A stretch of DNA of 64,000 bases from Heterodontus francisci (taxonomy: Eukaryota). The translations under genes were made by a program, and so were the position numbers. A model generated the notes under the pieces. The model did not search any database. It was not told the DNA's origin and was given only the letters and a program-made list of their open reading frames with translations. This document shows positions 5,065-63,771 of this stretch, piece after piece; the first letter of the stretch is position 1, and each line of letters starts with the position of its first letter. The stretch lies in NCBI RefSeq assembly GCF_036365525.1, contig NC_090399.1, forward strand, positions 13,453,558 to 13,517,557. Reading direction: 5' to 3'.

Positions 5065-5088
5065 AACCCTAACCCTAACCCTAACCCT
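5065..5088 (-). repeat. Short interstitial telomeric repeat (TTAGGG)x4
   Basis: AACCCT repeated four times. Confidence 0.75.
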
Positions 5089-6775: not shown

Positions 6776-6939
6776 ATCATGGATGGGCTGGGAGAAGTAT
6801 GAAAAAGCCCAGCCTTCTATACGTCTGCTCCCAGACTGTTTATTAATTATCTTTTTACATATTTATCCATACAGTTGATACTTATTCATACTGAGTTCCC
6901 ACACTCCACTGTCAGGCTATTATATTATTAATAATCTGA

Positions 6940-16600: not shown

Positions 16601-18595
16601 GGAGGAAAGGAAAGTGTCTGACCCACTGCCCCACCCAGTGCCAGAGGAGGGAAAGGACAGTGTCTGACCCACTGCACCACCCAGGCCCAGAGGGAGGAAA
16701 GGACAGTGTCTGAACCACTGCACCACCCAGTCCCTGAGGGAGGAAAGGACAGTGCCTGACCCACTGCCCTGCCCAGTCACAGAGGGAGAAAGGACAGTGT
16801 CTGACCAACTGCTCACCCAGTCCCAGAGAGGGAAAGGACAGTGTCTGACCCACTGCCCCTCCCAGTCCCAGAGGGGGAAAGGACTGTGTCTGACCCATTG
16901 CCCCACCCAGTCCCAGAGGGGGTAAGGACAGTGTCTGACCCACTGCACCGCCCAGTCCCAGAGGGGGGAAAGGACTGTGTCTGACCCATTGCCCCACCCA
17001 GTCCCAGAGGGGGAAAGGACAGTGTCTGACCCACTGCCCTACCCAGTCCCAGAGGGGGAAAAGACTGTGTCTGACCCACTGCCCCACCCAGTCCCAGAGG
17101 AGGAAAGGACAGTGTCTGACCCACTGCCCCACCCAGTCCCAGAGGGGGGAAAGGACAGTGTCTGATCCACTGCATCACCAAGTCCCAGTGTTGGAAAGGA
17201 CAGTGTCTGACCCACTGCCCCACACAGTCCCAGAGGGGGAAAGGACAGTGTCTGACCCACTGCACCACCCAGTCCCAGAGGGAGGAAAGGACAGTGTCTG
17301 ATCCACTGCATCACCCACTCCCAGAGGGGGAAAGGACAGTGTCCGACCCACTGCCCCACCCTGTCCCAGAGGGGGGAAAGGACAGTGTCTGACCCACTGC
17401 ACCACCCAGTCCCAGAGGGAGGAAAGGACAGTGTCTGATCCACTGCATCACCCAGTCCCGGAGGGGGAATGGACAGAGTCTGACCCACTGCAGCGCCCAG
17501 TCCCAGAGGGGGGAAACGACAGTGTCTGACCCACTGCTCCACCCAGTCCCAGAGGGGGGAAAGGACAGTGTCTGACCCACTGTCCCACCCAGTCCCAGAG
17601 GGGGAAAGGACAGTGTCTGACCCACAGTCCCACCCTCTCCCAAAGGGGGAAAGGACATTATCTGTCCCACTGCCCCACTCAGTCCCAGAGAGGAAAAGGA
17701 AAGTGCCTGACTCACTGTCTCACCCAGTCCCAGAGGGGGAAAGGACAGTGTCTGACCCACTGCCCCACCCAGTCCCAGAGGGGGAAAGGACAGTGTCTGT
17801 CCCACTGCCCCACCCATTCCCGGAGGGGGAAAGGACAGTGTCTGACCCACAGCCCCACCCAGTCCCAGAGGGGGAAAGGACAGTGTCTGTCCCACTGCCC
17901 CACCAGTCCCAGAGGAGGAAAAGACAGTGTCTGACCCACTGCCCCACCCAGTCCCAGAGGGGGAAAGGACAGTGTCTGTCCCACTGCCCCACCCATTCCC
18001 AGAGGGGGAAAGGACAGTGTCTGACCCACTGTCTCATCCAGTCCCAGAGGGGGAGAAGACCGTCTCTGACCCCTGTCCCACCCAGTCCCAGAGGAGGAAA
18101 AGACAGTGTCTGACCCACTGCACCAGCCAGTCCCAGAGTAGGAAAGGACAGTGTCTGACCCACTGCATCACCCAGTCCTAGAGGAGGAAAGGACAGTGTC
18201 TGACCCACTGCATCACCCAGTCCTGGAGGAGGAAAGGACAGTGTTTGACCCACTGCACCACCCAATCCCAGAGGAGGAAAGGAAAGTGTCTGACCCACTT
18301 CCCCACCCAGTCCCAGAGTGGGAGAGTACAATGTCTGACCCACTGCATCACCCAGTCCCAGAGGAGGAAAGGACAGTGTCTGACCCACTGCACCACCCAA
18401 TCCCAGAGGAGGAAAGGAAAGTGTCTGACCCACTGCACCACCCAGTCCCAGAGTGGGAGAGTACAGTGTCTGACCCACTGCATCACCCAGTCCCAGAGGG
18501 GGAGAGTACAGTGTCTGACCCACTGCATCACCCAGTCCCAGAGGAGGAAAGGACAGTGTCTGACCCACTTCCCCACCCAATCCCAGAGGGGGAAT
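10605..18595. repeat. ~8-kb GC-rich satellite, 44-46-bp unit, ~175 copies, with higher-order block duplications
   Basis: Consensus CCCAGAGGGGGAAAGGACAGTGTCTGACCCACTGCCCCACCCAGT; period 45 (15241 to 15286). Confidence 0.95.
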
Positions 18596-26052: not shown

Positions 26053-26441
26053 TCACTTCCTTCCAAAGAAAGCCACAATTCCCATAAGAGCCAAGAGTTT
26101 TGCACAAGTAAGTGACACCACTGCAGCTATAGCGTGCCCTGGTATCTTCTTTGATGCTATTTCAATGGAGCCATCATGGTGGCTTGTCCCGTTATCTTCA
26201 ATGCCTGAGCCCAACCCAGAGTCATCAATAAATAATCCCGAAACAGAATCATCAATGGGTAATCCCGAACCAGAATCAACAATGGATATTCCCGAATCAG
26301 AATCATCAATGGGTAATCCCGAAACAGAATCAACAATAGATATTCCCGAATCAGAATCATCGATGGGTAATCCCGAAACAGAATCATCAACAGGAAATCC
26401 CATATACATATCTTCAAGTGGCAAGGCCCAACAGCAGAACT
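26053..26441 (-). CDS. Exon 2 of the putative small membrane proteoglycan-like gene (acidic Ser-Gly 9-aa repeats plus C-terminal hydrophobic segment)
   Basis: Acceptor CTAAT...TTTTTTTCCC...TTGTAG|AG is phase-compatible with exon 1. Spliced peptide EFCCWA-LPLEDMYMGFPVDDSVSGLPIDDSDSG...NGT...IPGHAIAAVVSLTCAKLLALMGIVAFFGRK*. Contains a 27-bp internal repeat x7. Confidence 0.72.
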
Positions 26442-33387: not shown

Positions 33388-35100
33388 ATGGAATTGAAAA
33401 AAAATGACACTGAAAATATATTTTGGGACAATGGGCCTAACAAAGAGGACTGGTGTAATTACAAACGAAGGTTACACATTTGGCTGAAAGCTCATAAAAT
33501 AGGTGATGAGGATAAAGTAATTTATTTCCTCACGATGATGGGGCCAGATGATTTTGAGGTAGTGTGAGATGCCTGTGAGACCCCAGTACTATGGACTATT
33601 CTGAAATTAATGAGATTCTGGACTCATATTATGGCATAATTAAGAACAAAATTGCATTCCGCGAAAGGTAGCAATTGCCAAGAGAGACTATTGCAGATTA
33701 TATTCTTAAATTAAAGAAACTGTCTCATCACTGTGAGTATGGCATGAACTTAGAAGTCAACCTTAAAGACATGTTGGTTGGAGGTCTAAAGATAAGTAAA
33801 ATCCAGGCCAATCTTTTGAATAAAGACAATAAGCTGATGTGGAAGAAAGCCTGCGATGAGACTGCAGCCATGGAAATGGCAGGAAGAGATAGCTACAGAC
33901 TGCAAAGCAGTTCTTTTCCTAAGCTGACAGGGGAGGTGAAGTTAGTGTTAGGGTGGAATACGATGATGCATCCTATTACTTGCCATTGGTAGTAGTAGGA
34001 GGGAACAAAGTCCCCCTAATGGGAAGGATTTGGCTCAAGAAAATACGGTTAAACTGGGCTGAGTTATTTACAATAGGGATCAGTAAGAGTACGTCTGACA
34101 TTGATGAAGTATTAAGGTAGCACAAAGTGGTCTTTGAGCAAGGAGGACCAAATGATAAAATTAGGCATCACAGGCCCGAAGTCAAGATAAAGGACAATGT
34201 ACAGCCAACATTTTGCAAAGCTAGGCAGTGTCTTATGCACAGTCAGAAGCAGTAAATAAAGAGCTGGTCAGATTAGAAAGAACAGCAGCAATTAAGAAGG
34301 TAAAGAACAGTGAATGGGTGCACCCAATGCGGCAGTTCAAAAAGCAGATGGGTCTATTTAGATTTGTAAAGATTATAAACAAATGGTAAATAAGGTGTTT
34401 GAAAATGATACTTGTCTACTGCCTACTAGTGATGATTTACTGTCTAATTTAGCAAATGGGAAGGTGTTCAGTAAGATAGGTCAATCAAATGCATATTTAC
34501 AATTAGAATTTACTAGCAAGAGCAAGGAATTGCTCACTATTCATACACACAAAGACTTGTACCAGTACAAAAGTTTAACATTTGGGGTGTCTACTGCTCT
34601 GGTAATGTTCCAGAGCATCGTGGATCAGTTACTAAGTGGGATGAAAGGTGTGTGCTGCTTCTTAGATGACATTTTAATCAACAGTAAGATAGAAAAAGAG
34701 TATATTGTAAGGTTGAACAAAATCCGAGATTGACTTCAAGAGTATGGCATCAAAGCTAAAAAGCACAAGTGTTATTTGATGGTGCCAAGTGTAACATACC
34801 TGGGTCACCAACTAGATGGTGAAAGTATCCACCCAACACAGGAGAAGGTTAGGGGGATTTTGAAAGCAAAGAGACTCAAGAACAAAGAAGAACTCTGAAC
34901 ATTCATAGGAATTGTTGTGTACTATTCAAAGTTGAAAGTTGAAAGTTCATCCCCGATTTAGCTAATACATTCACCCCATTGTATCAACTGCTCAAAGATG
35001 GAATAGTTTGGGAGTGGTCTGTGGAACGTCAGAAGGCATTTGAAGAAGTGAAGAAATTACTGACCAGTGATGCTGTTTTGACCCATGATCCCAAGAAACA
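33388..35100 (+). mobile_element. Degenerate Gypsy/Ty3 LTR retrotransposon, gag-pol remnant
   Basis: Gag-like ETIADYILKLKKLSHHCEYG...LKDMLVGGLK; RT motifs FSKIGQSNAYLQL, TFGVSTALVMFQ, CFLDDILI; WEWSVERQKAFEEVKKLLTSDAVLTHDP. Many stops and frameshifts. Confidence 0.85.
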
Positions 35101-35979
35101 ATTTGAATTCCTTCCAACTATGGAAGATCTTTGTACTCTATGTAAATTTAAAATCATTAAAAGGTCCAATTTGACAATTTATTTTGACTGAATTCAATGT
35201 CACTTGCAACTATACTTCCTCTATATGACCTTGCACGTGAGAATTGCTTCAAATATACTATCTGACTGCTTCCACCGCCTTTTGAGGAAGAGAATTCCAA
35301 ACACTCACAACCCTCTTTATACTTCCTCTTTCACTATGTTAATTTCATCTAATAATTAATACCTTTCTTCCCTGATTGCAATGTCTGTAATGTCCCTCTC
35401 TTTTGTGAAAACAGATGCAAAATATTCATTAAGAACCATACCTGTAGTATAATGTAATAGAGTGGACATGGGGTTGTTACTGGGTCGATTATGTAAATAG
35501 ACTGTGTGTATCATCACAGGAAATTATGTAATATAATCTGTACAGAACCTTGCAGAGAGCTGTAGAGGAAACCTTAGATGCAAGACATGTTCAGTAAACT
35601 CCTGTTATTCTAAGCTTCAGACTCTTATGTATTCTGTACTAAGACTTAATAGTTATCAGAATATTATATGGTGGCAGCAGGAAAAGAAGATGGAGAAATC
35701 TTTGCCTTTACTGGAAAACTTCTAGAACGTAGCTGGGCTGAACCAAGCCGAGGTGTGGCTGAAATGGGACCAGAGGTTTGCAAGGTATTGTGATGCATTG
35801 GGTCTCATGCAGAAGCCAGACAAGGAGAAGGTCAATATGCTGTTGTATGCAATAGGGGAGTGTGCAGACAATATGCTCATTACTCAAGGTATAGATGAAG
35901 AGAAAGCTACATGTGAAGAAGTCATTACGGCACTCAGGACGTACTTTAATGTAAGGAAAAATGTCATTGTGGAGTTTTT

Positions 35980-38900
35980 TTTATTCATTCATGGGATGTG
36001 GGCATGGCTGGCCAGGCCAACATTTATTGCCCATCCCTAATTGCCCTTGAGAAGGTGGTGGTGAGCTGCCTTCTTGAACTGCAGCAGTCCATGGGAGGTA
36101 AGTACACACACAGTGCTGTTAGGAAGGGAGTTCTAGGGTTTTGCCCCAGCGACAGTGAAGGAACGGTGATATAGTTCCAAGTCAGGATGGTGTGTGACTT
36201 GGAGGGGAACTTGCAGGTGGTGGTGTTCCCATGCATTTGCAGCCCTTGTCCTTCTAGTTGGTAGAGGTCATGTGTTTGGAAGGTGCTGTCTAAGGAGCCT
36301 TGGTGCATTGCTGCAGTACATCTTGTAGATGGTACACACTGCTGCCACTGTGCATCGGTGGTAGAGGAAGTGAATGTTTGTGGATGGGGTGCCAATCAAA
36401 CGGGCTGCTTTGTCCTAGATGGTGTCGAGCTTCTTAAGTGTTGTTGGAGCTGCACCCATCCAGGCAAGTGGAGAGTATTCCATTACACTCCTGATTTGTG
36501 CCTTGTAGATTGTGGACAGGGTTTGGGGAGTCAGGAGGCGAGTTACTCGCCGCAGGATTCCTAGCTTCTGACCTGCTCTTGTAGCCATGGTATTTATATG
36601 GCTACTCGAGTTCAGTTTCTGGTCAATGATAGCCCCCATAATGTTAATATTGGGAGATTCAGTGATGGTAATACCATTGAATGCCAAGGGGAGATGGTTA
36701 GATTCTCTCTTGTTTGAGATGGTCATTGTCTGGCACTTGTGTGGCGCGAATGTTAATTGCCAGTTATCAACCCAAGCCTGGATATTATCCAGGTCTTGCT
36801 GCAACTCTACATGGACTGCTTCAGTATCTGAGGAGTCACGAATGGTGCTGAACATTGTGCAGTCATCCCCAGTTCTGATCTTATGATGGAAGGAAGGTCA
36901 TTGATGAAGCAGCTGAAGATGGTTGGGCCTAGGACACTACCCTGAGGAACTCCTGCAGTGATGTCCTGGAGCTCAGATGATTGGCCTCCAACAACCACAA
37001 CCATCTTCCTTTGTGCTAGGTATGACTCCAACCAGCGGAGAATTTTCCTCCTGATTCCCATTGACTTCAATTTTGCTAGGGCTCCTTGATGCCATACTTG
37101 GTCAAATGCTGCCTTGATGTCAAGGGCTGTCACTCTCACCTCACCTCTTGAATTCAGCTCTTTTGTCCATGTTTGAACCAAGGCTGTAATGAGGTCAGGA
37201 GCTGGGTGGCCCTGGCGGAAACCAAACTGAGCATCAGTGAGCAGGTTATTGCTAAGCAAGTGCCGCTTGATGGCACTGTTGATGACACCTTCCATCGCTT
37301 TACTGATGATTGAGAGTAGGCTGATGGGGCGGTAATTGGCCGGGTTGGACTTGTCCTGCTTTTTGTGTACAGAACATACCTGTGCAATTTTCCAGATTGC
37401 AGGATAGATCCCAGTGTTGTAGCTGTACTGGAACAGCTTGGCTAGGGGTGCGGCAAGTTCTGGAGCACAGGTCTTCAGTACTATTGCTGGAATATTGTCA
37501 GGACCCATAGCCTTTGCAGTATCCAGTGCCTTCAGTCATTTCTTGATATCACGCGGAGTGAATCGAATTGGCTGAAGTCTGGCATCTGTGATGCTGGGGA
37601 TTTCAGGAGGAGGCCAAGATGGATTATCAACTTGGCACTTCTGGCTGAAGATTGTTGCAAATGCTTCCAACTTACCTTTCACACTGATGTGCTGGGCTCC
37701 CCCATCATTGAGTATGGGGATATTTGTGGAGCCACCTCCTCCAGTTAGTTGTTTAATTGCCCACCACCATTCATGGCTGGATGTGACAGGACTGCAGAGC
37801 TTACATCTGTTCCGTTGGTTATGGGATCGCTTAGCTCTGTCTATTCAGTTTGGCAAGCAGATAGTCTTGCGTTGTAGCTTCACCAGATTGACACCTCATT
37901 TTGAGGCATGCCTGGTGCTGCTCCTGGCAGGCTCTCCTGCACTCTTCATTGAACCAGGGTTGGTCTCCTGGCTTGATGGTAATGTGGGAGATATGCCGGG
38001 CCATGAGGTTACAGATTATGGTTGAGCACAATTCTGCTGCTGCTGATGGCCCATAGCGCCTCATGGATGCCCAGTTTTGCATTGCTAGGTCTGTTCAAAA
38101 TCTATCCCATTTAGCATGGTGGTAATGCCACACAACACGATGAAGGGTATCCTCAATGTGAAGGCGGGACTTTGTCTCCACAAAGACTGTGCGGTGGTCA
38201 CTCCTACCAATACTGTCATGGACAGATGCATCTGTGGCAGGCAGATTGGTGAGGACGAGGTCATGTATGTTTTTCCCTCTTGTTGGTTCCCTCACCACCT
38301 GCCGCATACCCAGTCTAGCAGCTTTGTCCTTTCGGACTCGGCCAGCGGTGGTGCTACCAAGCCACTCTCGGTGATGGAGATTGAAGTCCCCCACCCAGAG
38401 TACATTCTGCACCCTTTCCACCCTCAGAGCTTTCTCCAAGTGCTGTTCAACATGGAGGAGTACTGAGTCATCAGCTGAGGGAGGGCGGTAGGTGGTAATC
38501 AGCAGGAGGTTTTCTTGTCCATGTTTGATCTGATGCCATGAGACTTCATGGGATCCGGAGTCCATGTTGAGGACTCCCAGGACAACTCTCTCCCGACTGT
38601 ATAGCACTGTGCCGCCACCTCTGGTGGGTCTGTCCTGCTGATGGTGATGGCAGTGTCTGGGATATTGTCAGGTATGATTCCGTGAGTATGACTATGTCAG
38701 GCTGTTGCTTGACTAGTGTGTGGGACAGCTCTCCCAATATTGGCACAAGCCCCCAGATGTTAGTAAGGATGACTTTGCAGGGTCGACAGGGCTGGGTTTG
38801 CCGTTGTCGTTTCCAGTGCCAAGGCCGATGCCAGGTGGTCCGTCTGGTTTCATTCTTTTTCATTGACTTCGTAGCGGTTTGATACAATTGAGTGGATTGC

Positions 38901-45433: not shown

Positions 45434-48026
45434 AAAGAACAAAGAAAATTAAAGCACAGGAACAGGCCCTTCGGCCCTCCAAGCCTGCGCCGATCCAGAT
45501 CCTCTATCTAAACATGTCGCCTATTTTCTAAGGGTCTGTATCTCTTTGCTTCCTGCCCATTCATGTATCTGTCTAGATACATCTTAAAAGACGCTATCGT
45601 GCCCGCGTCTACCACCTCCGCTGGCAACGCGTTCCAGGCACCTACCACCCTCTGCGTAAAGAACTTTCCACGCATATCCTCCCTAAACTTTTCCCCTTTC
45701 ACTTTGAACTCGTGTCCCCTAGTAATTGAATCCCCCACTCTGGGAAAAAGCTTCTTGCTATCCAACCTGTCTATACCTCTCATGATTTTGTACACCTCAA
45801 TCAGGTCCCCCCTCAACCTCCGCCTTTCTAATGAAAATAATCCTAATCTACTCAACCTCTCTTCATAGCTAGCGCCCTCCATACCAGGCAACATCCTGGT
45901 GAACCTCTTCTGCACCCTCTCCAAAGCATCCACATCCTTTTGGTAATGTGGCGACCAGAACTGCACGCAGTATTCCAAATGTGGCCGAACCAAAGTCTTA
46001 TACAACTGTAACATGACCTGCCAACTCTTGTACTCAATACCCTGTCCGATGAAGGAAAGCATGCCGTATGCCTTCTTGACCACTCTATTGACCTGCGTTG
46101 CCACCTTCAGGGAACAATGGACCTGAACACCCAAATCTCTCTGTACATCAATTTTCCCCAGGCCTTTTCCATTTACTGTATAGTTCACTCTTGAATTGGA
46201 TCTTCCAAAATGCATCACCTCGCATTTGCCCTGATTGAACTCCATCTGCCATTTCTCTGCCCAACTCTCCAATCTATCTATATTCTGCTGTATTCTCTGA
46301 CAGTCCCCTTCACTATCTGCTACTCCACCAATCTTAGTGTCGTCTGCAAACTTGCTAATCAGGCCACCTATACTTTCCTCCAAATCATTAATGTATATCA
46401 CAAACAACAGTGGTCCCAGCACGGATCCCTGTGGAACACCACTGGTCACACGTCTCCATTTTGAGAAACTCCCTTCCACTACTACTCTCTGTCTCCTGTT
46501 GCCCAGACAGTTCTTTATCCATCTAGCTAGTACACCTTGGACCCCATGCGCCTTCACTTTCTCCATCAGCCTACCATGGGGAACCTTATCAAACGCCTTA
46601 CTGAAGTCCATGTATATGACATCTACAGCCCTTCCCTCATCAATCAACTTTGTCACTTCCTCAAAGAATTCTATTAAGTTGGTAAGACATGACCTTCCCT
46701 GCACAAAACCATGTTGCCTATCACTGATGAGCCCATTTTCTTCCAAATGGGAATAGATCCTATCCCTCAGTATCTTCTCCAGCAGCTGACGTCAGGCTCA
46801 CCGGTCTATAATTACCTGGATTATCCCTGCTACCCTTCTGAAACAAGGGGACAACATTCGCAATTCTCCAGTCCTCCGGGACCTCACCCGTGTTTAAGGA
46901 TGTTGCAAAGATATCTGTTAAGGCCCCAACTATTTCCTCTCTCACTTCCCACAGTAACTTGGGATAGATCCCATCCGGACCTGGGGACTTGTCCACCTTA
47001 ATGCCTTTTAGAATACCCAGCACTTCCTCCCTCCTTATGCCGACTTGACCTCGAGTAATCAAACATCTGTCCCTAACCTCAACATCCGTCATGTCCCTCT
47101 CCTCGGTGAATACCGATGCAAAGTACTCATTTAGAATCTCACCGATTTTCTCTGACTCCACGCATAACTTTCCTCCTTTGTCCTTGAGTGGGCCAATCCT
47201 TTCTCTGGTTACCCTCTTGCTCCTTATATATGAATAAAAGGCTTTGGGATTTTCCTTTACCCTGTTTGCTAAAGATATTTCATGGCCCCTTTTAGCGCTC
47301 TTAATTCCTGATTTCAGATTGCGCCTACAATCCCGATATTCTTTCAAAGCTTCGTCTTTCTTCAGCCGCCTAGACCTTATGTATGCTTCCTTTTTCCTCT
47401 TAGCTAGTCTCACAATTTCACCTGTCATCCATGGTTCCCTAATCTTGCCATTTCTATCCTTCATTTTCACAGGAACATGTCTCTCCTGCACACTAATCAA
47501 CCTCTCTTTAAAAGCCTCCCACATATCACATGTGGATTTACCTTCAAACAGCTGCTCCCAATCTACATTCCCCAGCTCCTGCCGAATTTTGGTATAGTTG
47601 GCCTTCCCCCAATTTAGCACTCTTCCTTTAGGACCACTCTCGTCTTTGTCCATGAGTATTCTAAAACTTATGGAATTGTGATCACTATTCCCAAAGTAGA
47701 CCCCTACTGAAACTTCAATCACCTGGCCGGGCTCATTCCCCAACACCAGGTCCAGTATGGCCCCTTCCCGAGTTGGACTATTTACATACTGCTCTAGAAA
47801 ACCCTCCTGGATGCTCCTTACAAATTCTGCTCCATCTAGACCTCTAACACTAAGTGAATCCCAGTCAATGTTGGGAAAATTAAAATCTCCTATCACCACC
47901 ACCCTGTTGCTCCTACATCTTTCCATAATTTGTTTCCATATTTGTACCTCTATCTCACGCTCGCTGTTGGGAGGCCTGTAGTACAGCCCCAACATTGTTA
48001 CCGCACCCTTCCTATTTCTGAGTTCC
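45434..48026 (-). mobile_element. Young CR1 LINE (ORF2 split into 411-aa and 412-aa ORFs by one small deletion), nested in an older CR1 (44870-45430 / 48030-48480)
   Basis: APE YYRPPNS, GDFNFPNIDW, SDHN; RT QHGFVQGRSCLTNL, YMDFSKAFDKVPH, SGVPQGSVLGP, KFADDTK. Confidence 0.95.
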
Positions 48027-52304: not shown

Positions 52305-52320
52305 GGCTCTGAAAAGAGCC
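52305..52320 (-). terminator. Histone 3' stem-loop of H2B variant 1
   Basis: AAAAAA-GGCTCTTTTCAGAGCC-ACCCA on the minus strand. Confidence 0.95.
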
Positions 52321-52365
52321 TTTTTTTGAGTTGAACGTCTCGGCGCGGTTCAGCGACCGCGAGTC

Positions 52366-52722
52366 CTATTTGCAGCTGGTGTACTTGGTGACCGCCTTTG
52401 TGCCCTCGGAGATGGCGTGCTTGGCCAGCTCCCCCGGCAGCAGGAGGCGGACGGCGGTCTGGATCTCCCTGGAGCAGAGGGTCTGCTTTTTGCCATAGTG
52501 GACTAGGCGGGAGGCCTCGCAGACGATGCAGTCCAAGATGTCGCTGACGAACGAGTTGAGGACGCTCATGGCCACGGCAGAGATGCTGCTGCCGGGGTGG
52601 ACCTGCTTCAGCACCCTGTGGATGTAGATGCTGAAACTCTCCTTCCGTACCCGCCTGCGCTTCCTCTCGCCTTTGGCCCGCTTCTGGGGCACCACTTTCT
52701 TTGGCCCCTTCTTGGGGGCCAT
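52366..52722 (-). CDS. H2B: Histone H2B, highly divergent variant (118 aa, 4 Cys)
   Basis: MAPKKGPKK...[18 protein letters not shown]...[34 protein letters not shown]; intronless, with 3' stem-loop. Confidence 0.93.
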
Positions 52723-52794
52723 GCCCTCGGACCCTGGCGCAGCTCTTGGCGGTGGGACCAGCAACTCGACCCCGAAGGCAGAAAAACCCCTGGG

Positions 52795-52932
52795 CGCGTT
52801 ATTTAACAGCTAGGGGTACGCAAATGAGGAATCGGAAACTGTCACTTTCCTATTGGTGGACCTGTGAAGAGTCCATCGTGATTTGCGAACAAGGGATGTG
52901 AATTGACCAATCAGGAACCGCTAACTATATGG
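52795..52932. promoter_or_regulatory. H2B-type (bidirectional-looking) histone promoter
   Basis: Minus strand: CCAAT (~52852), octamer variant ATTTGCGT (~52819-52826), TTAAATAA (~52799). Plus strand: CCAATC (~52907) and CTATAT (~52925). Confidence 0.6.
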
Positions 52933-53569
52933 TTGCCGCTTCCAGTCGTTAGCCTGCCCTGACTGTCGAAGCGGATCTCCCGCTGGATTTCAGGGAGGGC
53001 GCACACTCGAGAGAAAAAAAGCATTCAATACGTTCAGTATCGGTAGGGTGACCCCGGGGGAGGGCTGGGAATCCCGTAAGGCACTTGGCCAGGAGAGCGA
53101 TTGGAAGTTGTCCTGAATCTATAGGGCATGCGAGCTGTGTGCCCCACCACAGGGAGTCAGAGAGGGGTAAATGTCTGGGCACAAAACATTGCTTTCGTGC
53201 AGCGCGGCTAAAGGTGCAAGGAAGCCCGCCCAATTTTCCAGTCAATTAAGGTACACGTCGCGCATGACTTATCTGCTACAGATCATTCAGCTGGATGTTA
53301 GGCACCCTGAAAGCTGCCACCGCTCATTTCTGCTATAAAACCCTTCTTAAAACCTACCTCTTACTATCCGAATATCTCCTTAGGTGGCTCGGCGTCAAAT
53401 TGGGTCTGATTACATTCCTGTGAAGTTCTTTGGGACGTCCAAGGCGCTATATAAATGCAACTTCTTGTTGGAATACCAAGACTAGCCAGATGGATTTTGG
53501 AAACCTGGGATTATCGCTTGCTCCACGCTATCGGGACATCATCCACGATTCAAGCCTGCAATCGAATAT

Positions 53570-54205
53570 ATAGAGGTCTCCTCTACATTGGAGAGACCAA
53601 ACGCAGATTGAGTGACTGCTTTGCGGAACACCTCTGCTCAGTCGGAAAACATGACCCCGAGCTTGCTATTTCAACACAGACTCCTGCTGTCGTGCCAACA
53701 TATCTGTCCGTGGCTTGCTGCAGTATTCCAGTGAACATCAACACAAGCTCGAGGAGCAGCATCTGATCTTTCAATTCGGCACGCTACAGCCTGCCGGACC
53801 GAACACTGAGTTCAATAATTTCAGAGCATGACTGGCCTTTTTTACATTATTCTTTTTTATTATTTTATTTGTAAACAACGCCTGTTTTTCGTGTAGACAG
53901 AGCTGCTCATTATTCTGCCATTAACACTCTCTCTGAACTAATGCTTTGTCTTTCACAAGCATTAACACACGCTTTGCCTTTGTCCCTGGACAGCTTTGTT
54001 ATTTAATCTCTCCTGCCCTCTGCCCCATCACACACCCACCCTATTGTTCTCTACCCCAAACCCCCTTCGCTTGCTTAAGACCTAATTCTTTTCTAACCTT
54101 TGCCAGTGCTGCTGAAAGGTCACAGACCTGAAACGTTAACTCTGCTTGTCTCTCCACAGATGCTGCCTGACCCGCTCAGTATTTCCAGCACTTTCTGTTT
54201 CTATC
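53570..54205 (+). mobile_element. Penelope-like element 3' fragment (GIY-YIG remnant)
   Basis: GLLYIGETKRRLSDCFAEHL peptide; tail 'tctccacagatgctgcctgacccgctcagtatttccagcac'. Short related copies at 51855-51985 and 55330-55420. Confidence 0.75.
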
Positions 54206-54741
54206 GCAGCAGATTCTTAATGCCCAACCATTTCAATTAAACATTCAAAGCTCACCTCAGCACAAGCATTCCTGAATGCATGTTTCCAACGAACTGAGGC
54301 ACGGAATCATGCACACCTTTACACTCTCCCCACTCGAACCAGCAAACGTGCCAACGCCATCCATTTCCTGCTAGATATCCACCCCGGTTGAGTGTTTTCT
54401 GTGCACAAAATCAAAGTGATTCCAATAATAGATGCATTGGAAGCAAGACTTGAGTTGTCTCCAACTACCCAATGTACCATTTCCTTGGGCCTTGAGTGCT
54501 AACTTGAATAGGTGACAATCTCCCTTCTGCTGGGTCACACTATTGCTCTATAACTATCATCTATTGTTGTGACTGCTTGAAACTACCCTCTAGCTCAATA
54601 ACTGGATAAGGATTAATTGTTCCGACTAGTGAAATGTTCAATGTCAAGTCGAGTCTTGATGATCTGTAATTTCGCAGTCATTATTACCGGTTTTTATACG
54701 TGCAAACCCTCTTATCCAGCCCTCTTGCTGATTGAATGAGT

Positions 54742-54757
54742 GGCTCTTAAAAGAGCC
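54742..54757 (-). terminator. Histone 3' stem-loop of H4, with purine-rich downstream element
   Basis: GGCTCTTTTAAGAGCC-ACTCA followed by ...CAAGAGG on the minus strand. Confidence 0.95.
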
Positions 54758-54820
54758 TTTTTTGTTGTTGTTTAAACTATCCTAATTCTTGTTCATTTCC
54801 CCACCCCCCCGCCCCGCCCC

Positions 54821-55237
<417 letters not shown>

Positions 55238-55604
55238 CTATAAATGGGTGGAGTCAGGATGAAAATGACACATCCTCGCTTATTTTCAAGCAGCCGGTAT
55301 TGAACCGCATCCAGGGAGGGAATTACACAAAGACAAAAACAAAATGCTGAAATCTGAAATAGAAACAGCAAATGCTGCAACATGCTCAGCAGTGTCAGGC
55401 AGCATCTGCGCAGGGAGAAATTGAGTTGATCTAGTCGATTTAGTCGATTTGTTATGGACACAGTTTTGCCTCCTTGAGCTGTGCTCTATTGAAGCCCCTC
55501 CAGTTTTGTTATGTTTCAGAGTCTGTTTCGGTCCTTCCAGCAAGCAATTTCATTGTGCCACTGCTTTTTTCTTCTTCCGTGTTTGCCTTTTTTTGGGGAT
55601 TTGT

Positions 55605-58600
55605 TCAGGGGGAGGGTGAGCAGCCAGAGATCATGGGACACATCGGTACCGACGCCATAGGTAGAAAAAGGGATGCGGCCCTGCAACAAGAATTTAGGGA
55701 GCTAGGTAGCCGATTAAAAAGCAGGACCTCTAAGGTTGTAATCTCTGGATTATTCCCGGTGCCACGTGCTAGTGAGTATTAGAATAGGAGGATAGAGCAG
55801 ATAAATTCATGGCTGAGCAGATGGTGCAAGAGAGAGGGCTTTAGTTTCCTGAATCACTGGGTCTGATTCTGCCAAAGGTGGGACCTGTACAAGTTGGACG
55901 GGTTGCACCTGAACCGGAATGGCATGAGCATCCTTGCTGGGAGATTTCCTCGTTCCCTGGGGGGGTTAAACTAATTTGGCAGGGGTATGGGATACAGAGT
56001 GGAGGTACAGTAGTGAGAACAGAAAGTGAGTCTGCCTGGAAGGCAGAGCGAATATAGACCTGGTAAGGCACAAGGGAAAAATGCAAGGTTGGATTGCATC
56101 TATTTCAACACAAGGAGTCTAACTAGTAAGAATTGAGGTCGTTGTTTAGCACATGGGATTATGATATTATTGCTATCACAGAGACATGGTTGAGGGAGGG
56201 ACAGGACTGGCAGCTCAATATTCCAGGATATAGAATCTTCAGGCGCGACAGGTGAGGGGATAAAAGAGGAGGTGGCATTGCACTGTTGATCAAGGAGTCA
56301 ATTACTGCAGTGAGGAGGGATGACATCTTAGAAGGTTCCTCAAATGAGGCTATTTGGGTTGAACCTGAAAACAAAAAGGGGGCAATCACTTGACTGGCAG
56401 TGTACTACAGACCTCCAAACAGTCAGGAAGACATAGAGGAACAGATATGTAGGCAAATCTCTGATAGGTGTAAAAATAATAGGGTAATAACAGTAGGGTA
56501 TTTCAACGTCCCCAATATTAACTGGATAGTCTTAGCGCAAAAGGCTTAAAAGGGGTGGAATTCTTAAAATGCATACAGGAGAGCTTTTTGAGCCAGTATG
56601 TAGGAAGTCCTACAAGAGAAGGGGCAGTACTGGATCTAATCCTAGGGAATGAAGCCAGTCAAGTGGTAGAAGTGTCAGTGGGGGAGCATTTCGGGGATAG
56701 TAACCATAACTCTGTAAGATTTAGGTAGTTATAGAAAAGGACAAAGATCGAGCGGAAATAAAGGTACTGAATTAGGGGAAGGCTGATTTCAATATGATAA
56801 AACAGAATCTGGCCAAAATGGACTGGGAGCAGCTACTTGTAGAAAAGTCTACAGCGCATCAGTGGGAGTCATTCAGAGAGGAAATTGTGAGAGTTCAGAG
56901 CCAACATGTACCCGTTAAGAAGAAGAGTAGGACCAACAAGTCCAGGGAACCCTGGATGTCAAGGGATATAGAGGACTGGATCAGGAAAAAAAAGGAGGCT
57001 TATGGCAGATTCAGAGTGCTGCAAACAGCGGAGGCACTAAAGGAGAATATAAAGTGTAGGGTGACACTTTAAAAAGTAATTAGGAGAGTGAAGAGGGGAC
57101 ATGAAAAAACACTGGCGGGCAAGATAAAGGAAAATCCCAAGGCGTTTTATAAGTATATTAAGAGTTAGAGGATAACCAGGGAAAGAGTAGAGCCCATTAG
57201 GGACCAACATGGCAACCTTTGTGTGGAGCCAGAGGACATAGGTGAGGTTTTAAATTATTGCTTTTCATCTGCATTCATGATGGAGAAGGACGATGTAGGT
57301 GTAGAGATCAGGGAGGGGATTGTGATATACTTGAACATATTAACATTGAAAGGGAGGAAATATTCGCTGTTGTAGCGGGCTTAAAAGTAGATAAATCCTC
57401 CAGCCCAGATGAGATGTATCCCAGGCTGTTATGTGAGGCAATGGAGGAGATAGCAGGGGCTTTGACACAAATTTTCAAATCCTCTCTAGCCACAGGAGAG
57501 GTACCAGAGGACTGGAAGACAGCAAATGTGGTACCATTATTCAAGAAGGGTAGTAGGGATAAACCAGGCAATTACAGGCCGGTGAGTCTAACATCAGTGG
57601 TAGGAAAAATATTGGAAAAAATTCTGAGGGACGGGATTAATCTCCACTTGGAGGGGCAGGGATTAATCAGGGATAGTCAGCATGGCTTTGTCAGGGGGAG
57701 ATGGTGTCTAACTAACTTGATTGAATTTTTTGAGGAGGTAACTAGATGTGTCGATGAGGGTAAAGCAGTAGATGTAGTATACATGGATTTCAGTAAGGCT
57801 TTTGATAAGGTCCCGCATGGGAGATTGGGTAAGAAGGTAAGAGCCCATGGGATCCAGGGCAATTTGGCAAATTGGATCCAAAATTGGCTTAGTGGCAGGA
57901 GGCAGAGGGTGATGGTCGAGGGCTGTTTTTGTGATTGGAAGCCTGTGACCAGTGGCGTACCACAGGGATCGGTGCTGGGACCTTTGCTGTTTGTAGTGTA
58001 CATTAATGATTTAGACGTGAATATAGGAGGTATAATCAGTAAGTTCGCAGATGACATGAAAATTGGTGGTGTTGTAAATCGTGAGGAGAAAATCCTTAGA
58101 TTACATGGAGATATAGATGGGCTGGTAAGATGGGCGGAGCTGTGGCAAATGGAATTTAATCCTGAAAAGTGTGAGGTAATGCATTTTGGGAGGACTAACA
58201 AGGCAAGGGAATACACAGTGGATGGTAGGACACTAGGAAGTACAGAAAGTCAGAAGGACCTTGGTGTACTTGTCCATAGATCACTGAAGGCAGCAGCACA
58301 GGTAGATAAGGTGGTTAGGAAGGCATATGGGATACTTGCCTTTATTAGCCGAGGCATAGAATATAAGAGCAGGGAGGTTATGATGGAACTGTATAACACT
58401 CTAGTTAGGCCACAGCTGGAGTACTGTGTACAGTTCTGGGCACCACACTATAGGAAGGATGTGATTGCACTGGAGAGGGTGCAGAGGAGATTCATCAGGA
58501 TGTTGCCTGGGCTGGAGCATTTCAGCTATGAAGAGAGACTTAAAAGGCTAGGGTTGTTTTCCTTAGAGCAGAGAAGGCTGAGAGGGGACATGATTGAGGT

Positions 58601-58953
58601 GTACAAAATTATGAGGGGCATTGTTGGGTTAGATAGGAAGAAACTTTTTCTCTTAGCGGAGGGGTCAAGAACCAGGGGACATAGACTTAGGGTAAGGGGC
58701 AGGAGGTTTAGGGGGGATTTGAGGAAGCATTTTATCACCCAGAGGGTGGTTGGAATCTGGAACGCACTGCCTGAAGAGGCGGTGGAGGTAGGAACCCTCA
58801 CAACATTTAAGAAGTATTTAGATGAGCACTTGAAATGCCATAGCATACAAGGCTACGGGCCAAGTGCAGGAATAGGGGATTAAAATAGTTGGCTGGCACA
58901 AACACGATGGGCCGAAGGGCCTGTTTCTGTGCTGTATAACTCTATGACTCTAT
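55605..58953 (+). mobile_element. CR1 LINE, ORF1 esterase remnant plus near-complete ORF2
   Basis: ORF1 HIGTDAIGRKRD...KVVISGLFPVPRA; broken APE; 541-aa open RT region; CTCTATGA tail. Confidence 0.95.
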
Positions 58954-59689
58954 GGGGTGTGGCTGTTGCTGGATGGGCCAGCATTTGTTGCCCATCCCTA
59001 ATTGCCCTCGAGAAGGGGGTGGTGAGCAGCTTTCTTGAAACGCTGCAGTCCATGTGGTGTAGGTACACCCACAGTGCTATTAGGGAGGGATTTTGAACCA
59101 GGAACAGTGAAGGAAAAGTGATATAGTTCCAAGTCAGGATGGGGAGATGCTTTCAGTTCACCTGGCTTTTCACAAGATACAGGGATGGTGGAATGAAGGG
59201 TAGGTTGGGGGTTGAGTTGCTGGAGGGAGAATGCCTTCAGTTAGATGCAGCCTGGATGAATGCAGCCTCGACACCTCTTTCATAGACCCAGTTAAATGTT
59301 GTAATTGCGGACTAAGAAAAAAAGCTTTAATATAACGGCTGGCAACTGGCTACTCTCTGTTTCTCCTCCTAACCCTCATATTTGAGCAACTGCCAGCAAT
59401 AAATGATATTCCAATTGTGATCTGAGCTAAAACCTCTGCTTTTGAAAGTAGTTCCAGGGATTTCAGAATGCAAGAGCCACTGTATGTGTATTAGGGCCAC
59501 TGTATGTGCATTGTTCACCAGTAACTTTACCATCCAAAAAATTAATCAGAAGAGCAAATAACAAAATAAAGATTCACTTGTCAATATACAGACAAAACTA
59601 TTAAGAATCATCCCCAAAAGAAATGTTACTCCATGTTTCTATATTTCCACTTGCATATGATTACATGACAAAATGAAAGGCACAATTCA

Positions 59690-60911
59690 GCATAGCAGTG
59701 CCTCATCAGACCCCTTTCCTATCCTGAGTGGCGTGAAACAGGGCTGTGTTCTCACACCTACACAGTTTGGGATCTTCTTCTCTCTGCTGCCCTCAACATG
59801 CGTTCAAGTCTTTAGAAGAAGGAATTTTCTTCCACACAAGATCAGGTGACAGGTTGTTCAACCTTGCCCGTCTAAGAGCGAAGACCAAAGTACGGAAAGT
59901 CCTCATCAGGGAACTCCTCTTTGCTGACGTTGCTGCATTAACATCTCACACTGAAGAGTGTCTGCAGAGACTCATCGACAGGATTGCGGCTGCCTGCAAC
60001 GAATTTGGCCTAACCATCAGCCTCAAGAAAATGAACATCATGGGACAGGACATCAGAAATGCTCCATCCATCAATATCGGCGACCACGCTCTGGAAATGG
60101 TTCAAGAGTTCACCTACCTAGGCTCAGTTATCACCAGTAACCTGTCTCTCGATGCAGAAATCAACAAGCGCATGGGAAATGCTTCCACTGCCATGTCCAG
60201 ACTGGCCAAGAGAGTGTGAGAAAATGGCGCACTGACACGGAACACAAAAGTCCGAGTGTATCCAGACTGTGTCCTCTGTACCTTGCTCTACGGCAGCGAG
60301 GCTTGGACAACGTATGTCAGCCAAGAGCGACGCCTCAATTCATTCCATCTTCGCTGCCTCCGGAGAATCCTTGGCATCAGGTGGCAGGACCGTATCTCCA
60401 ACACAGAAGTCCTTGAGGCGGCCAACATCCCCAGCATTACACCCTACTGAGTCAGCAGCGTTTGAGATGGCTTGGCCATGTGAGCCACATGGAAGATGGC
60501 AGGATCCCCAAGGACACATTGTACAGCGAGCTCGTCACTGGTATCAGACCCACCAGCCGTCCATGTCTCCGCTTTAAAGACGCCTGCAAACGCGACATGA
60601 AGTCCTGTGACATTGATCACAAGTCATGGGAGTCAGTTGCCAGTGATCGCCAGAGCTGGTGGGCAGCCATAAAGGCGGGGCTGAAGAGTGGCGAGTCGAA
60701 GAGACTTAGCTGTTGGCAGGAAAAAGACAGAAGCGCAAGGGGAGAGCCAACTGTGTAACAGCTCCGACAACCAACTTTATCTGCAGCACCTATCGAAGAG
60801 TCTGTTAGTCTAGAATTGGCCTTTATAGCCACTCCAGGCGTTGCTTCACAAACCACTGACCACTTCCAGGCGCTTACCCATTGTCTCTCGAGCCAAGGAG
60901 GCCAAAGAAGA
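59690..60911 (+). mobile_element. RTE-clade LINE 3' portion
   Basis: IRELLFAD(V)AAL, EFTYLGS, LDAEINKRMG, LYGSEAWT, RWLGHVSHMEDGRIPK. Confidence 0.9.
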
Positions 60912-61349
60912 CACCTTCAAAAATACTTGGAAACGTCTTGAAAGGCGATATAAAATTGCAAGACTTTTCGAAAAAATATTGGCCTACTTCAGTTCAAGAA
61001 GGTGAGTGTCAATTGGATTGAAAGTTTAGTTTGCATTAGTGCGTATCATGGATGCAAGCGTCCAGGGAGTGAGGGGTGATGGTGGGATTTAAGATTTGAA
61101 ATATGCAAGCAAACGGGACGTTTACATTATTCTATATATTTTGCAGTCACAGCGAGGAAGCTGCAAAGCGCCCCTTCCCTGGGAGCACGCGCCGGCTCTG
61201 CCCGTGGGAGGACTCGCCTCTAAAACGTCCGCCTTGAGCTTTGAAAAGGCGCCGCCGCCGCCGCCCGCTCGGCAGCTTCGGTCCCCGCGGCGAGGAGGGC
61301 GGAGCAGCCGCTGGGGAAGAGAAGGCAAGGCGCCGCCGGCAGCAACCAA

Positions 61350-62000
61350 ATGGCTTCGGGTGATCTGGCCGAAGGCCCCACCCGAGGCAGGAAGCCGAGG
61401 AAGCGGAGGGTCCCGCCCAAGCTGCGGCAGGTGGGCGCGCCCACCATGGCCGGGCACATCCTGGAAGCGGTGTCGTCTTCCCGGGAGCGTCGCGGCCTGT
61501 CGCTGGCCGGCGTCAAGAAGGCGCTGTCGGCCGCCGGCTACGACGTGCCGCGGATCAACTCGCGGGTGAACCAGGCGGTCCGGAACCTGGTGAACGAAGG
61601 CTCGCTGCTGCAAACGGCGGGCACCGGGGCCTCGGGCTCCTTCAAGATCAACCGGCAGCGCCAGGACATTCAGAGCCGCCCGGCCCTCACTGCCACCGCC
61701 CCCCGGGGCGGGCAGCAGAGGGCGGCCGCCAGCGGCGGCACCGCTAAGAGGGAGAAGAAGAGGATCCCCGCCGAGAAGAACAAGCCGGTCAGGCGGAAGA
61801 AGAACGGCACCGCCGGCGGCCGGCGAAAGGCCGCGAAGGGAACCGGCGGCAGGACCGGTCCCCGGAGGGGGGTCGGGCGGCCCAGGAAAGCAGCCAGGGA
61901 GCCGGCGCCAGACGCCGGTCCGCCCGGTGGGCAGGAGGCCGAGCAACAGCCGGGAGGGGAAAGCAGTTCCGAGGGCACCGTCCAAGGCGGGAAACCCTGA
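61350..62000 (+). CDS. H1: Linker histone H1, arginine-rich divergent variant (216 aa)
   Basis: Winged-helix core PTMAGHILEAVSSSRERRGLSLAGVKKALSAAGYDV...SRVNQAVRNLVNEGSLLQTAGTGASGSFKIN; intronless, with 3' stem-loop. Confidence 0.92.
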   Translation: MASGDLAEGPTRGRKPRKRRVPPKLRQVGAPTMAGHILEAVSSSRERRGLSLAGVKKALSAAGYDVPRINSRVNQAVRNLVNEGSLLQTAGTGASGSFKINRQRQDIQSRPALTATAPRGGQQRAAASGGTAKREKKRIPAEKNKPVRRKKNGTAGGRRKAAKGTGGRTGPRRGVGRPRKAAREPAPDAGPPGGQEAEQQPGGESSSEGTVQGGKP

Positions 62001-62042
62001 GGGCGGAATCCGAGTGTGAAATATATCAAAGTGAACAAAAAA

Positions 62043-62058
62043 GGCTCTTTTCAGAGCC
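62043..62058 (+). terminator. Histone 3' stem-loop of H1, with HDE
   Basis: GGCTCTTTTCAGAGCC-ACCAC, then AAAAGAG at ~62072. Confidence 0.95.
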
Positions 62059-62489
62059 ACCACCACCTTCAAAAAGAGAAATCAATATAAATAAACTTTA
62101 GTGCTGTTGCAAAAGGGGACAAATATTATTATTGGCTGAAATGCTACTTTAGAGTCACCGCACCCTTAAAATGATGCACTAAATGTCAGCTTCAGAATAA
62201 TTGTTGCTTCAGTTCCAACTTTATTGATTGACATTTTGAAGATTAACTCGAGAATTTTGACAGCAAAGCATCTTCACCCTTGAGCATTTTGGACCTTTGG
62301 AACAGGCTGCCGGCATCGAGAAACGGTCTGCATGTTGAAATTAGTCAGAGAATGAAATAATGGCAAAAATAGTCCGCAGTTATTGAAGTTGTCTGCAGCT
62401 ATGAGTTGGAATTTCGTCGGAGTTCATGCTCCCCATAAATGCATCCTGCCCCCTTCTTTTACCTCACTCTCACTTTTACTGCGGCGAGT

Positions 62490-62770
62490 AACTCATCTCG
62501 TCAAAGCCTGTCCACCATCTACAAGGCACGAGTCAGGAGTGTGATGGAATACCCTCCATAGTCTGGATGGGTGCAGTTCCAACAACACTCAAGAAGCTCG
62601 ACACCATCCAGGAGAAAGCAGCCCATATGATCGGTACCCCCTCCACCACCTTCAACTTTCACTCTCTCCAGTGTGTATCACCCACAAGATGCACTGCAGC
62701 AACTCGTCAAGATTTCGATGGGCATTAGGGATGGGCAATAAATACTGACCGTCAGTGATACCCAGATCTT
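62490..62770 (+). mobile_element. LINE 3' fragment (family of 35980-39190)
   Basis: ctgtccaccatctacaaggcacgagtcaggagtgtgatggaatac..., the reverse complement of ~36410-36545. Confidence 0.7.
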
Positions 62771-63298
62771 GAGAACTTTATTTCAAAGGCCAAAGTAGCT
62801 GCGGTTCAATATTTGTGTGGTATGTAATGACGGCTTTTAGTAAATAGCTATTACTACAATGGCATTTCTGAGAGCGAGGATAGAAAATGACCTGGATTTT
62901 ACTCTTCGGCAATCTCCTTCGCCGTTTCTGGGACCAGTCTAACTTGATTATGTAGGGGAGCTCCGGGATCTTTGTGGCTCGAATGAATTCACTTTGCATT
63001 AGCTTACGGCCTGAAGGCATGTCACATGAGGGAATGAGATTTAATAATTAAACGAAATATAACTTTGCTGCGGGATTTTGATCCCGTGGCAGCGGCTCCT
63101 GACAACTAAAAAATTAAGTGGTATCTTACCGTGATTTGTGCAGACTGAACATGGGGTACATTAAGGATTAGTCAATTGGAATTGATGATTTGGTATCCTT
63201 CATTAGCATAAAACTGAGTACATCAGGGCGGAGCTGGGGGTGTCATTTTTTTTTTAATGAACTCGTCAACGTTCAAGGGGAATTTGAAGAGTTTTGCA

Positions 63299-63706
63299 AT
63301 GCCGACCGCTGCTGTTTCCACCAGTGCCACGACCGCCGGCGCCAAAGGCGCCGTTTCCAAGAAAGGGTCCAAGAAAACGGCGATGAAAATGTCCAGGAAG
63401 GGCGACAAGAAGCACCGGAGGAGCCGGAAGGAGAGCTACAGCATCTACATCTACAAGGTGCTGAAGCAGGTCCACCCCGACACGGGCATCTCCTCCAAGG
63501 CCATGAGTGTCATCAACTCCTTCGTCAACGACATCTTCGAGCGCATATCCTGCGAGGCTTCCCGCCTGGTCCATTACACCAGGCGCCAGACCATCTCCTC
63601 CAGGGAGATCCAGAGCGCCGTCCGCCTCCTGCTGCCGGGGGAACTGGCCAAGCACGCCGTCTCCGAGGGCACAAAGGCGGTCACCAAATACACCAGCTCC
63701 AAGTAG
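63299..63706 (+). CDS. H2B: Histone H2B, variant with extended N-tail (135 aa)
   Basis: [26 protein letters not shown]...[27 protein letters not shown]...AVTKYTSSK; octamer-like ATTAGCAT at ~63202. Confidence 0.95.
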
Positions 63707-63755
63707 AGCCCCAGAAAGAAACTTGCAATTACTTGACAGTAGAAAACCGTCCAAC

Positions 63756-63771
63756 GGCTCTTTTAAGAGCC
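63756..63771 (+). terminator. Histone 3' stem-loop of H2B variant 2
   Basis: CCAAC-GGCTCTTTTAAGAGCC-AC. Confidence 0.93.

Follow-up and report, generated by a model that had tools for sequence, protein, structure and literature searches.

A putative elasmobranch-specific cluster of variant histone genes in the MHC class III region of Heterodontus francisci

Background

The closest described counterparts of the genes presented here come from mammals, where H2B.1 (TH2B) and H1t provide germline analogues with stem-loop genes (PMC8857922, PMC13396413). In the main H2B survey, H2B.1 is given a eutherian origin, four of the five variants are assigned to mammals, and the elephant shark, included for H2B.K, is the sole cartilaginous fish (PMC8857922). 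Moreover, H4G is the only H4 variant listed for mammals in PMC11395991, and the histone cluster of the human major histocompatibility complex (MHC) is, according to PMC1351924, absent from the opossum MHC scaffold. Histone-variant surveys in general have concentrated on mammals. Here we report on four histone genes, two for H2B (H2B_a and H2B_b), one for H4 and one for H1, in a stretch of 64,000 nt of the shark Heterodontus francisci (contig NC_090399.1, positions 13,453,558 to 13,517,557; below, the window). Judged from their sequences, they very probably represent old, selected variants that are distinct from the bulk histones and have stem-loop 3' ends together with weakened S-phase promoter elements. 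By analogy with TH2B and H1t, we lean towards a cluster that is expressed mainly in germ cells and loosens chromatin, and that would resemble these two in its working while being a member of neither family.

The literature searched, the coverage of which is thin for subscription journals, including the older papers on dogfish sperm proteins, yielded no account of these variants, of histones in a shark MHC or of the expression of these genes and their relatives; we regard the cluster as undescribed. In the main text of PMC10751288, as far as it was available, the word 'histone' occurs 0 times.

Results

Gene structure

Scans for open reading frames (ORFs), Pfam and Rfam families and stem-loops were run across the whole window (Table 1). 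All four histone ORFs are intact and intronless, their proteins match the expected Pfam histone or histone-fold families (the H4 match is weak), and each gene has a perfect 16-nt stem-loop 43-64 nt past its stop codon. The intact ORFs and perfect stem-loops had been stated in an earlier reading made from the sequence alone (the sequence-only reading). Even with 2 mismatches allowed, the 64 kb contain no other stem-loop site (of the 6 matches, 2 are reverse readings of the same hairpins). Each of the four folds into a 6-bp hairpin, with z between -3.6 and -5.0, and two of them reach the gathering score of Rfam Histone3. The purine-rich downstream element (U7), judged by eye against the consensus, is clear in H4 and H1 and weak in both H2B genes. 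Neither AATAAA nor ATTAAA lies closer than about 300 nt to the stop of H2B_a or H2B_b; the AATAAA past the H1 stem-loop is a possible alternative polyadenylation signal, though a weak one given that about 0.2 are expected by chance per 300 nt.

That the H2B and H4 genes keep class-typical promoter motifs holds in part, since the remnants are present but degenerate. In both H2B promoters an octamer with one mismatch lies at -103/-97 (such sites occur in the background at 0.52 per kb per strand), accompanied by CCAAT at -134/-124; the H4 promoter has GGTCCG, a site-II-like motif, at -94 and CATAAA in place of TATA. In the 300 nt upstream of H1 both the H1 box and CCAAT are absent. The ratio of observed to expected CpG is 0.67-0.95 near the histone genes versus 0.37 in the background (19-52 kb), and the GC content of fourfold sites (GC4) is 0.89-0.91 in three genes and 0.68 in H4. 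H2B_b has an additional in-frame ATG at 63257 in poor context. H2B_a has lost about 8 N-terminal residues; the upstream in-frame reading resembles the start of Heptranchias P0073, to which it may be homologous.

Table 1. Histone genes and other features of the window (positions counted from its first letter)
Feature	Position	Strand	Remarks
H2B_a, variant H2B	52366-52722	-	118 amino acids, 4 Cys, fast-evolving, N-terminally shortened; Pfam match
H4 variant	54821-55132	-	103 amino acids; S1T, V65I, A69S, K79R, M84L
H1 variant, Arg-rich	61350-62000	+	216 amino acids; 0 S/TPXK sites; last 35 residues acidic
H2B_b, variant H2B	63299-63706	+	135 amino acids, extended tail
Stem-loop of H2B_a	52305-52320	-	16 nt, 0 mismatches
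Stem-loop of H4	54742-54757	-	16 nt, 0 mismatches; then purine-rich downstream element
Stem-loop of H1	62043-62058	+	16 nt, 0 mismatches; then purine-rich downstream element
Stem-loop of H2B_b	63756-63771	+	16 nt, 0 mismatches
H2B_a promoter	52852-52856; 52818-52825	-	CCAAT; one-mismatch octamer
H4 promoter	55204-55226	-	GGTCCG and degenerate TATA
H2B_b promoter	63202-63209	+	One-mismatch octamer
AATAAA	62090-62095	+	31 nt 3' of H1 stem-loop
In-frame relic of lost H2B_a N-terminus	52723-52752	-	10 residues, without ATG
SAPCD first coding exon	9530-9941	-	SAPCD1 by position, synteny anchor; Pfam SAPC2_N E=1.6e-24; splice donor seen
Candidate terminal exon	26053-26440	-	After acceptor-like AG; 27-nt tandem repeat, 6.9 copies; hydrophobic C-terminal segment
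76-bp minisatellite	6918-9552		34.8 copies, 96% identical
45-bp G-rich minisatellite	10589-18594		177.6 copies, 8 kb, directly upstream of SAPCD
Another 45-bp array	777-1366
Telomere-type hexamer	5060-5088		5 copies
Long retroelement frame	57414-58883	+	Between H4 and H1; RVT_1 and endonuclease matches
Long retroelement frame	45508-47995	-	Frames at 45.5-48 kb resemble that at 57414 by eye
Long retroelement frame	36415-38667	-	RVT_1 and endonuclease matches (36.4-38.7 kb)
Long retroelement frame	34362-35191	+	RVT_1 and endonuclease matches (34.4 kb)

The H2B variants

H2B_a, H2B_b and H4 do not have the bulk protein sequence of replication-dependent histones, in agreement with the sequence-only reading. 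Compared with the canonical Heterodontus H2B over residues 36-124, H2B_a has 25 differences and H2B_b 10, of which 13 and 6, respectively, are conservative (about 30% expected), and the changes are concentrated at late alpha2 and loop L2 (75, 81, 84, 87). We have compared both proteins with 35 of the 44 named chondrichthyan matches among the best 120 of 7677; the other nine, Scyliorhinus near-copies of which none matched the scanned variant pattern, and the unnamed matches were left out of the trees. A variant group of 11 rows emerged, from Heterodontus, Carcharodon, Heptranchias, Pristiophorus, Hypanus, Mobula and Leucoraja. C75 is found in 10/11 of these rows versus 0/26 canonical ones, a replaced N84 in 11/11 versus 0/26, Q/H87 in 11/11 versus 2/26, V/I81 in 8/11 versus 0/26 and L45 in 11/11 versus 1/26, counts that are partly circular because the group was defined by those residues. 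Both window proteins have V61, C75, V81, Q87 and a changed N84, so that the residues proposed earlier are indeed shared, but G60S is not derived: S60 occurs in 26/26 canonical elasmobranch H2Bs and, like I39, is present in the window H2Bs but general in sharks. Both also have I73, H82 and I94, and residue 67 is S in H2B_a and N in H2B_b.

In the full-length tree the variant group forms one clade (support 91/84). Within it H2B_a pairs with the white-shark P0078 (94/84, and 93/77 on the core); both have a truncated N-terminus and share L62, L89 and C90, which occur in 0/47 other rows (49 in total), despite 25 core differences between them.

The squalomorph-represented variant clusters P0073, P0075 and P0163 hold 13, 7 and 6 member sequences, which suggests amplification of the variant in squalomorphs. 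A separate minor shark H2B type (P0147/P0096; T75, C87 and a distinct tail) is conserved between Heterodontus and Cetorhinus/Carcharodon, with support 100/97.

The H1 variant

Of the 53 H1 matches 15 are elasmobranch, with nine shark species contributing 11 rows and rays the other 4; relatives occur in 8 shark species besides Heterodontus. Identity to the window H1 over the globular domain is 83-90% in 9 galeomorph rows, 71% in Heptranchias, 57-64% in rays and 53-62% in 21 bony vertebrates, and in the tree the 16 elasmobranch rows, window included, form one clade (100/97). In a 50%-identity library the best three matches are named sharks (429, 171 and 159 bits), and other single-stretch matches reach at most 93. 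The shark members conserve a PRINSRVNQ-type helix, have an Arg fraction R/(K+R) of 0.55-0.73, a tail charge below half of the usual value and, in 11 of 12 rows, an acidic end with 6-8 D/E in the last 35 residues, where bony vertebrates have 0-3 and rays 0-1. The window H1 belongs to this elasmobranch Arg-rich H1 family. Its R/(K+R) is 0.63, K+R amount to 46/216 residues (21%) and Cys is absent; its C-tail has a net charge of +17 over 112 residues (reedfish and bichir: about +40 over 93-99), and compared with H1.4 four globular lysines are lost (K46E, K81N, K90E, K97A; H1.4 numbering). The globular domain scores 73-77 bits versus the H1.1-H1.5 type (H1.1-H1.4 type) and 29-30 versus H1x/H1.0, which rules out membership of H1.0/H5 or H1x; H1oo was not among the matches.

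A named H1-like protein of Heterodontus francisci (P0001; cluster of 2 members, one contig) is 99% identical, with 2 differences, and is probably either a second recent copy on the same chromosome or an allele. The second Met of the window H1 (M33; 61445-61448) has a strong Kozak context, and four shark relatives are annotated from M33; a shorter isoform without the basic N-tail is possible.

The H4 variant

The H4 protein is full length and 95% identical to canonical H4, with 5 differences (Table 1). All 5 are conservative, compared with 26-29% of random non-synonymous changes (p=0.001-0.002), which points to purifying selection on H4. Budding-yeast H4 likewise has S69 and L84, and the H4 in structures 4UUZ and 2NQB has T1. 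V65, A69, K79 and M84 occur in 31/31 parsed (33 checked) named non-human H4 matches, and no core change of the window is found there. In the annotations of sawfish and white shark, the corresponding position is taken by a gene of 312 bp, a candidate orthologue. Among the rows seen, both sawfish H4 genes of the MHC cluster are named 'H4-like', versus 'histone H4' in 9/9 reedfish H4 rows, which hints at divergence of the H4.

Four of the changes (65, 69, 79, 84) had been placed in the alpha2-C/L2/alpha3 region; the residues are as stated, but with the post-hoc choice of span taken into account the clustering (4/5 changes in a stretch of 20 residues) does not reach significance (p=0.079). The anchor pairs of H4-H2B docking given in PMC6212774, H2B E76-H4 R92 and H2B Y83-H4 Y88, are unchanged in H2B_a, H2B_b and H4.

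Genomic location

In the window SAPCD (-) is followed after 42 kb by the ORFs of 357 bp (-), 312 bp (-), 651 bp (+) and 408 bp (+). The gene tables for MHC chromosomes in the supplement of PMC10751288 are the source of all synteny rows. On sawfish chromosome 34 the left part of the block comprises hsp70, smx5, eight histone genes, vars1 (+) and SAPCD (-); after a 50-kb gap follow H4-like (-, 312 bp), H2B type 1-A-like (+, 411 bp), an uncharacterised 723-bp gene (+), two H2A-like and two H1-like genes, FAM102A, abhd16a and csnk2b (PMC10751288). Named H2A and H3 genes are included, so that this block has all five histone classes. White-shark chromosome 19 shows vars1, two multi-exon genes (-), genes of 351 bp (-) and 312 bp (-), seven short genes (+) and one of 639 bp (-); 351 bp is the size of P0078, although another gene of that size is found to the left of vars1. 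Catshark chromosome 13 has a comparable series of short genes in inverted position, and in the reedfish and lungfish rows seen there are no histone-sized genes between abhd16a, vars1 and sapcd1/LSM2 (PMC10751288). The contigs of the H1 relatives P0003 and P0009 (115.85 and 163.47 Mb) fit in length the MHC chromosomes of white shark and catshark, the last genes of which lie at 115.61 and 163.38 Mb. In Heptranchias an H1 relative and three variant H2B clusters are on one 21.08-Mb contig, and in Hypanus one H1 and one H2B share a contig.

Considering the SAPCD anchor and the matching blocks in sawfish, white shark and catshark, the window appears to hold one sub-cluster's left end; the histone cluster as a whole would be elasmobranch-specific and situated within MHC class III, with SAPCD1/VARS1 on one side and ABHD16A on the other. 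This position was missed by the sequence-only reading; the conserved synteny that it had proposed to look for is found in the three species. As to the variant H2A and H3 that it had suggested nearby, the sawfish syntenic block has H2A and H3 genes but the window has no H3 remnant, and the H2A/H3 partners are probably outside the window.

Indeed, tblastn and blastn revealed no further H3, H4, H2B or H1 remnants in the window; for H2A there was no reference sequence to test with, yet a fifth stem-loop is absent. Among the 130 stop-to-stop ORFs of at least 70 amino acids between 18.7 and 52.3 kb, 121 gave no Histone Pfam match; the other nine are known frames of long interspersed nuclear elements (LINEs) or H2B_a. 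LINE remnants lie between the histone genes, no tRNA genes were found in the window, and the Atlas gave generic H2B and SAPC2_N clusters only.

Beyond the histone genes, the candidate terminal exon (Table 1) has no Pfam match and may be part of the unnamed multi-exon gene (-) that lies between SAPCD and the histones in the white-shark and catshark tables; nothing identifiable as exons of that gene was found in the window. The unit of the 76-bp minisatellite takes in the end of SAPCD exon 1 together with its splice donor, giving about 34 copies of the 5' splice site. The table of the sawfish MHC chromosome (NC_067438.1) also has an H3/H2B/H3 triplet at 6.16-6.17 Mb and CENP-A at 1.59 Mb.

Discussion

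The proposal that the genes are kept apart from the bulk histones agrees with the six bulk-type H2Bs that Heterodontus has on 5 other contigs, and the idea that they are themselves the bulk histones of the species is rejected on that ground. Recent pseudogenes can likewise be rejected. In both sharks and rays, relatives of H1 and of H2B have stayed intact. If they work as the mammalian stem-loop variants TH2B and H1t do, expression would be mainly in germ cells, most likely spermatocytes and spermatids. The low-charge H1, with its C-tail of +17, four globular lysines gone and no S/TPXK sites, together with the altered late alpha2/L2 (C75, V81, non-N84, Q87) and tails of H2B, would then loosen the chromatin instead of compacting it, and this would precede replacement by the protamines of sharks. 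H4 would contribute tolerated changes only, leaving the H4-H2B docking surface essentially canonical.

Several observations weigh against an old, selected and chromatin-loosening variant cluster. The white-shark annotation rows seen are unnamed, and genes were matched to annotation rows solely on length and strand; variant H1 copies also occur on other chromosomes (P0004; P0002/P0011). Without the tail and column 75 the core H2B tree has two subclades (83/79, including both window genes, and 81/84) and separates variant from canonical rows with a support of only 73/47, so that the clade formation looked for is weaker there; our confidence in a single origin of the H2B variant group is moderate. 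H2B_a has the radical changes R72C, K57V and D51G, and between H2B_a and H2B_b the non-synonymous rate (dN, by NG86) is 0.15 and the synonymous rate (dS) 0.23, a dN/dS of about 0.65 that is inflated because dS is depressed by codon bias (third-position GC, GC3, about 0.9); H2B_a is thus under relaxed or positive selection. No shark H4 is among the 120 listed of 6889 H4 matches, many of which are tandem or extended artefacts or unnamed records. In rays the H1 family is more basic, at +33 to +46 in 3/4 members, and without the acidic end, which means that the loosening may be shark-only. Finally, the H1 tree took in no Lys-rich elasmobranch H1, as none was recovered, and the distinction of variant versus bulk thereby rests, for H1, on copy number and composition.

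There are three other explanations to consider. The genes may form an old 'orphon' cluster of the replication type that escaped homogenisation and drifts under weak purifying selection, with low S-phase expression, no special role and H2B_a decaying. The stem-loops, the octamer and CCAAT remnants, the tolerated yeast- or insect-type residues of H4, the dN/dS and the distance between H2B_a and P0078 are all in line with this, as are gene order and number, which vary between species at the MHC histone block in the tables seen. Drift does not, however, predict that the variant-specific residues are themselves conserved, as holds for C75, non-N84 and Q/H87 in H2B and for the helix and acidic end of H1, and truncated H2B_a-type ORFs are intact in two orders; we consider the orphon cluster unlikely. 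Maternal or early-embryonic (oocyte or cleavage-stage) histones, like H2B.K, H1oo/B4 and sea-urchin histones of the cleavage stage, would be a somewhat less likely explanation still. Oocyte H1s frequently have acidic, low-charge tails, and one variant H2B subclade shares V69 and S/T84 with H2B.K, in Leucoraja G85 as well. Against this, the gene for H2B.K contains an intron and carries a poly(A) signal (PMC8857922), whereas the genes here are intronless with stem-loops. Moreover, C75 occurs only in human among the H2B.K rows shown, and the H1 globular domain is of the H1.1-H1.5 type.

The strong form of the sequence-only reading, a co-evolved variant nucleosome whose H4-H2B four-helix bundle is reshaped for mutual specificity, together with an H1 that is protamine-like and compacts chromatin, seems improbable to us. 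C75 and residue 84 do neighbour E76 and Y83, M84L is presumably at the start of alpha3, and the sawfish cluster, in the rows seen, combines five histone classes with two H4 genes named 'H4-like'. Yet the anchor pairs are intact, S69 and L84 are present in yeast nucleosomes, T1 in the H4 of 4UUZ and 2NQB, the clustering stays at p=0.08 and the H1 has 21% K+R with an acidic end, and for these reasons the co-evolved interface is left unsupported.

The preferred reading, a germ-cell variant cluster, has wider implications. An independent shark-ray set, with an age of about 250-300 million years, would serve to test whether innovation in germline histones keeps arriving at the same changes, at H2B 75/84 and L2 and in a low-charge, Arg-rich H1, and the zonal arrangement of the shark testis makes stage-specific expression directly testable. 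An unremarked histone cluster would be added to the 'ancestral' MHC map, and a conserved H4 variant, if true, would be rare among vertebrates. We think it rather doubtful, though conceivable, that the cluster is a complete germline nucleosome set (variant H2A, H2B, H3, H4 and H1), co-deployed and conserved since the shark-ray ancestor; if so, it would hold a long-conserved vertebrate H4 variant, where for mammals only the hominid H4G is listed.

Among the known systems, the likeness to the scylliorhinines and to the H1-derived sperm proteins of the protamine-like (PL) type lies in the Lys-to-Arg shift in an H1 and the Cys gain in H2B. The analogy with scylliorhinines drawn before is nevertheless a poor fit: PL-type sperm nuclear basic proteins have about 35-50 mol% K+R, and the 21% of the window H1 rules out membership, its acidic C-terminus and lack of Cys being further differences. 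H4G (H4C7) is, like the window H4, a variant within a histone cluster on the MHC chromosome (PMC11395991), but it is hominid-specific, truncated and 85% identical to canonical H4, and the full length and 95% identity of the wholly conservative window H4 exclude membership. H2B.K (H2BK1) shares changes clustered around L2 (PMC8857922), S84 and, in human only, C75; it differs in its intron, poly(A) mRNA, polyQ tail, own locus and L73/Q82/V94, and the intronless stem-loop genes with I73/H82/I94 are not members.

H1t (H1.6) resembles the window H1 in its H1.1-H1.5-type globular domain, its Arg-enriched, low-charge tail and its lack of S/TPXK sites (Oryx H1t: R/(K+R) 0.31, 0 sites). It has no acidic end and groups with tetrapod H1s (one row, P0052), outside the elasmobranch clade, which rules out membership. 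H2B.1/TH2B (H2BC1) is, like the window H2Bs, an intronless stem-loop gene in an MHC-linked chromosome region (HIST1). The tail of H2B_b (AKGA-VSKKG) resembles the xxKG(A/T)TISKKG of TH2B, which was not placed in the tree, and is one residue shorter; the syntenic sawfish gene has been given the automatic name 'H2B type 1-A-like'. Among the best 60 matches of the variant H2B profile TH2B comes 7th, whereas with the canonical shark profile it is outside the best 60; this is no more than a lead, as chicken and Xenopus-type H2Bs still score higher. However, S75 and S84 of H2B.1 are not ancestral, as cow and sheep keep G75 and N84, and the matches at 75/84 are parallel. Of the fold residues I39, S60 and T67 of H2B.1, T67 is missing from the window H2Bs, and their MHC class III locus, without counterpart in the reedfish and lungfish tables seen, contrasts with the eutherian position of TH2B, so that membership of H2B.1 is ruled out as well. 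That the TH2B-like tail of H2B_b is a relic of an MHC-linked germline histone set of the jawed-vertebrate ancestor, and not convergence, strikes us as highly improbable.

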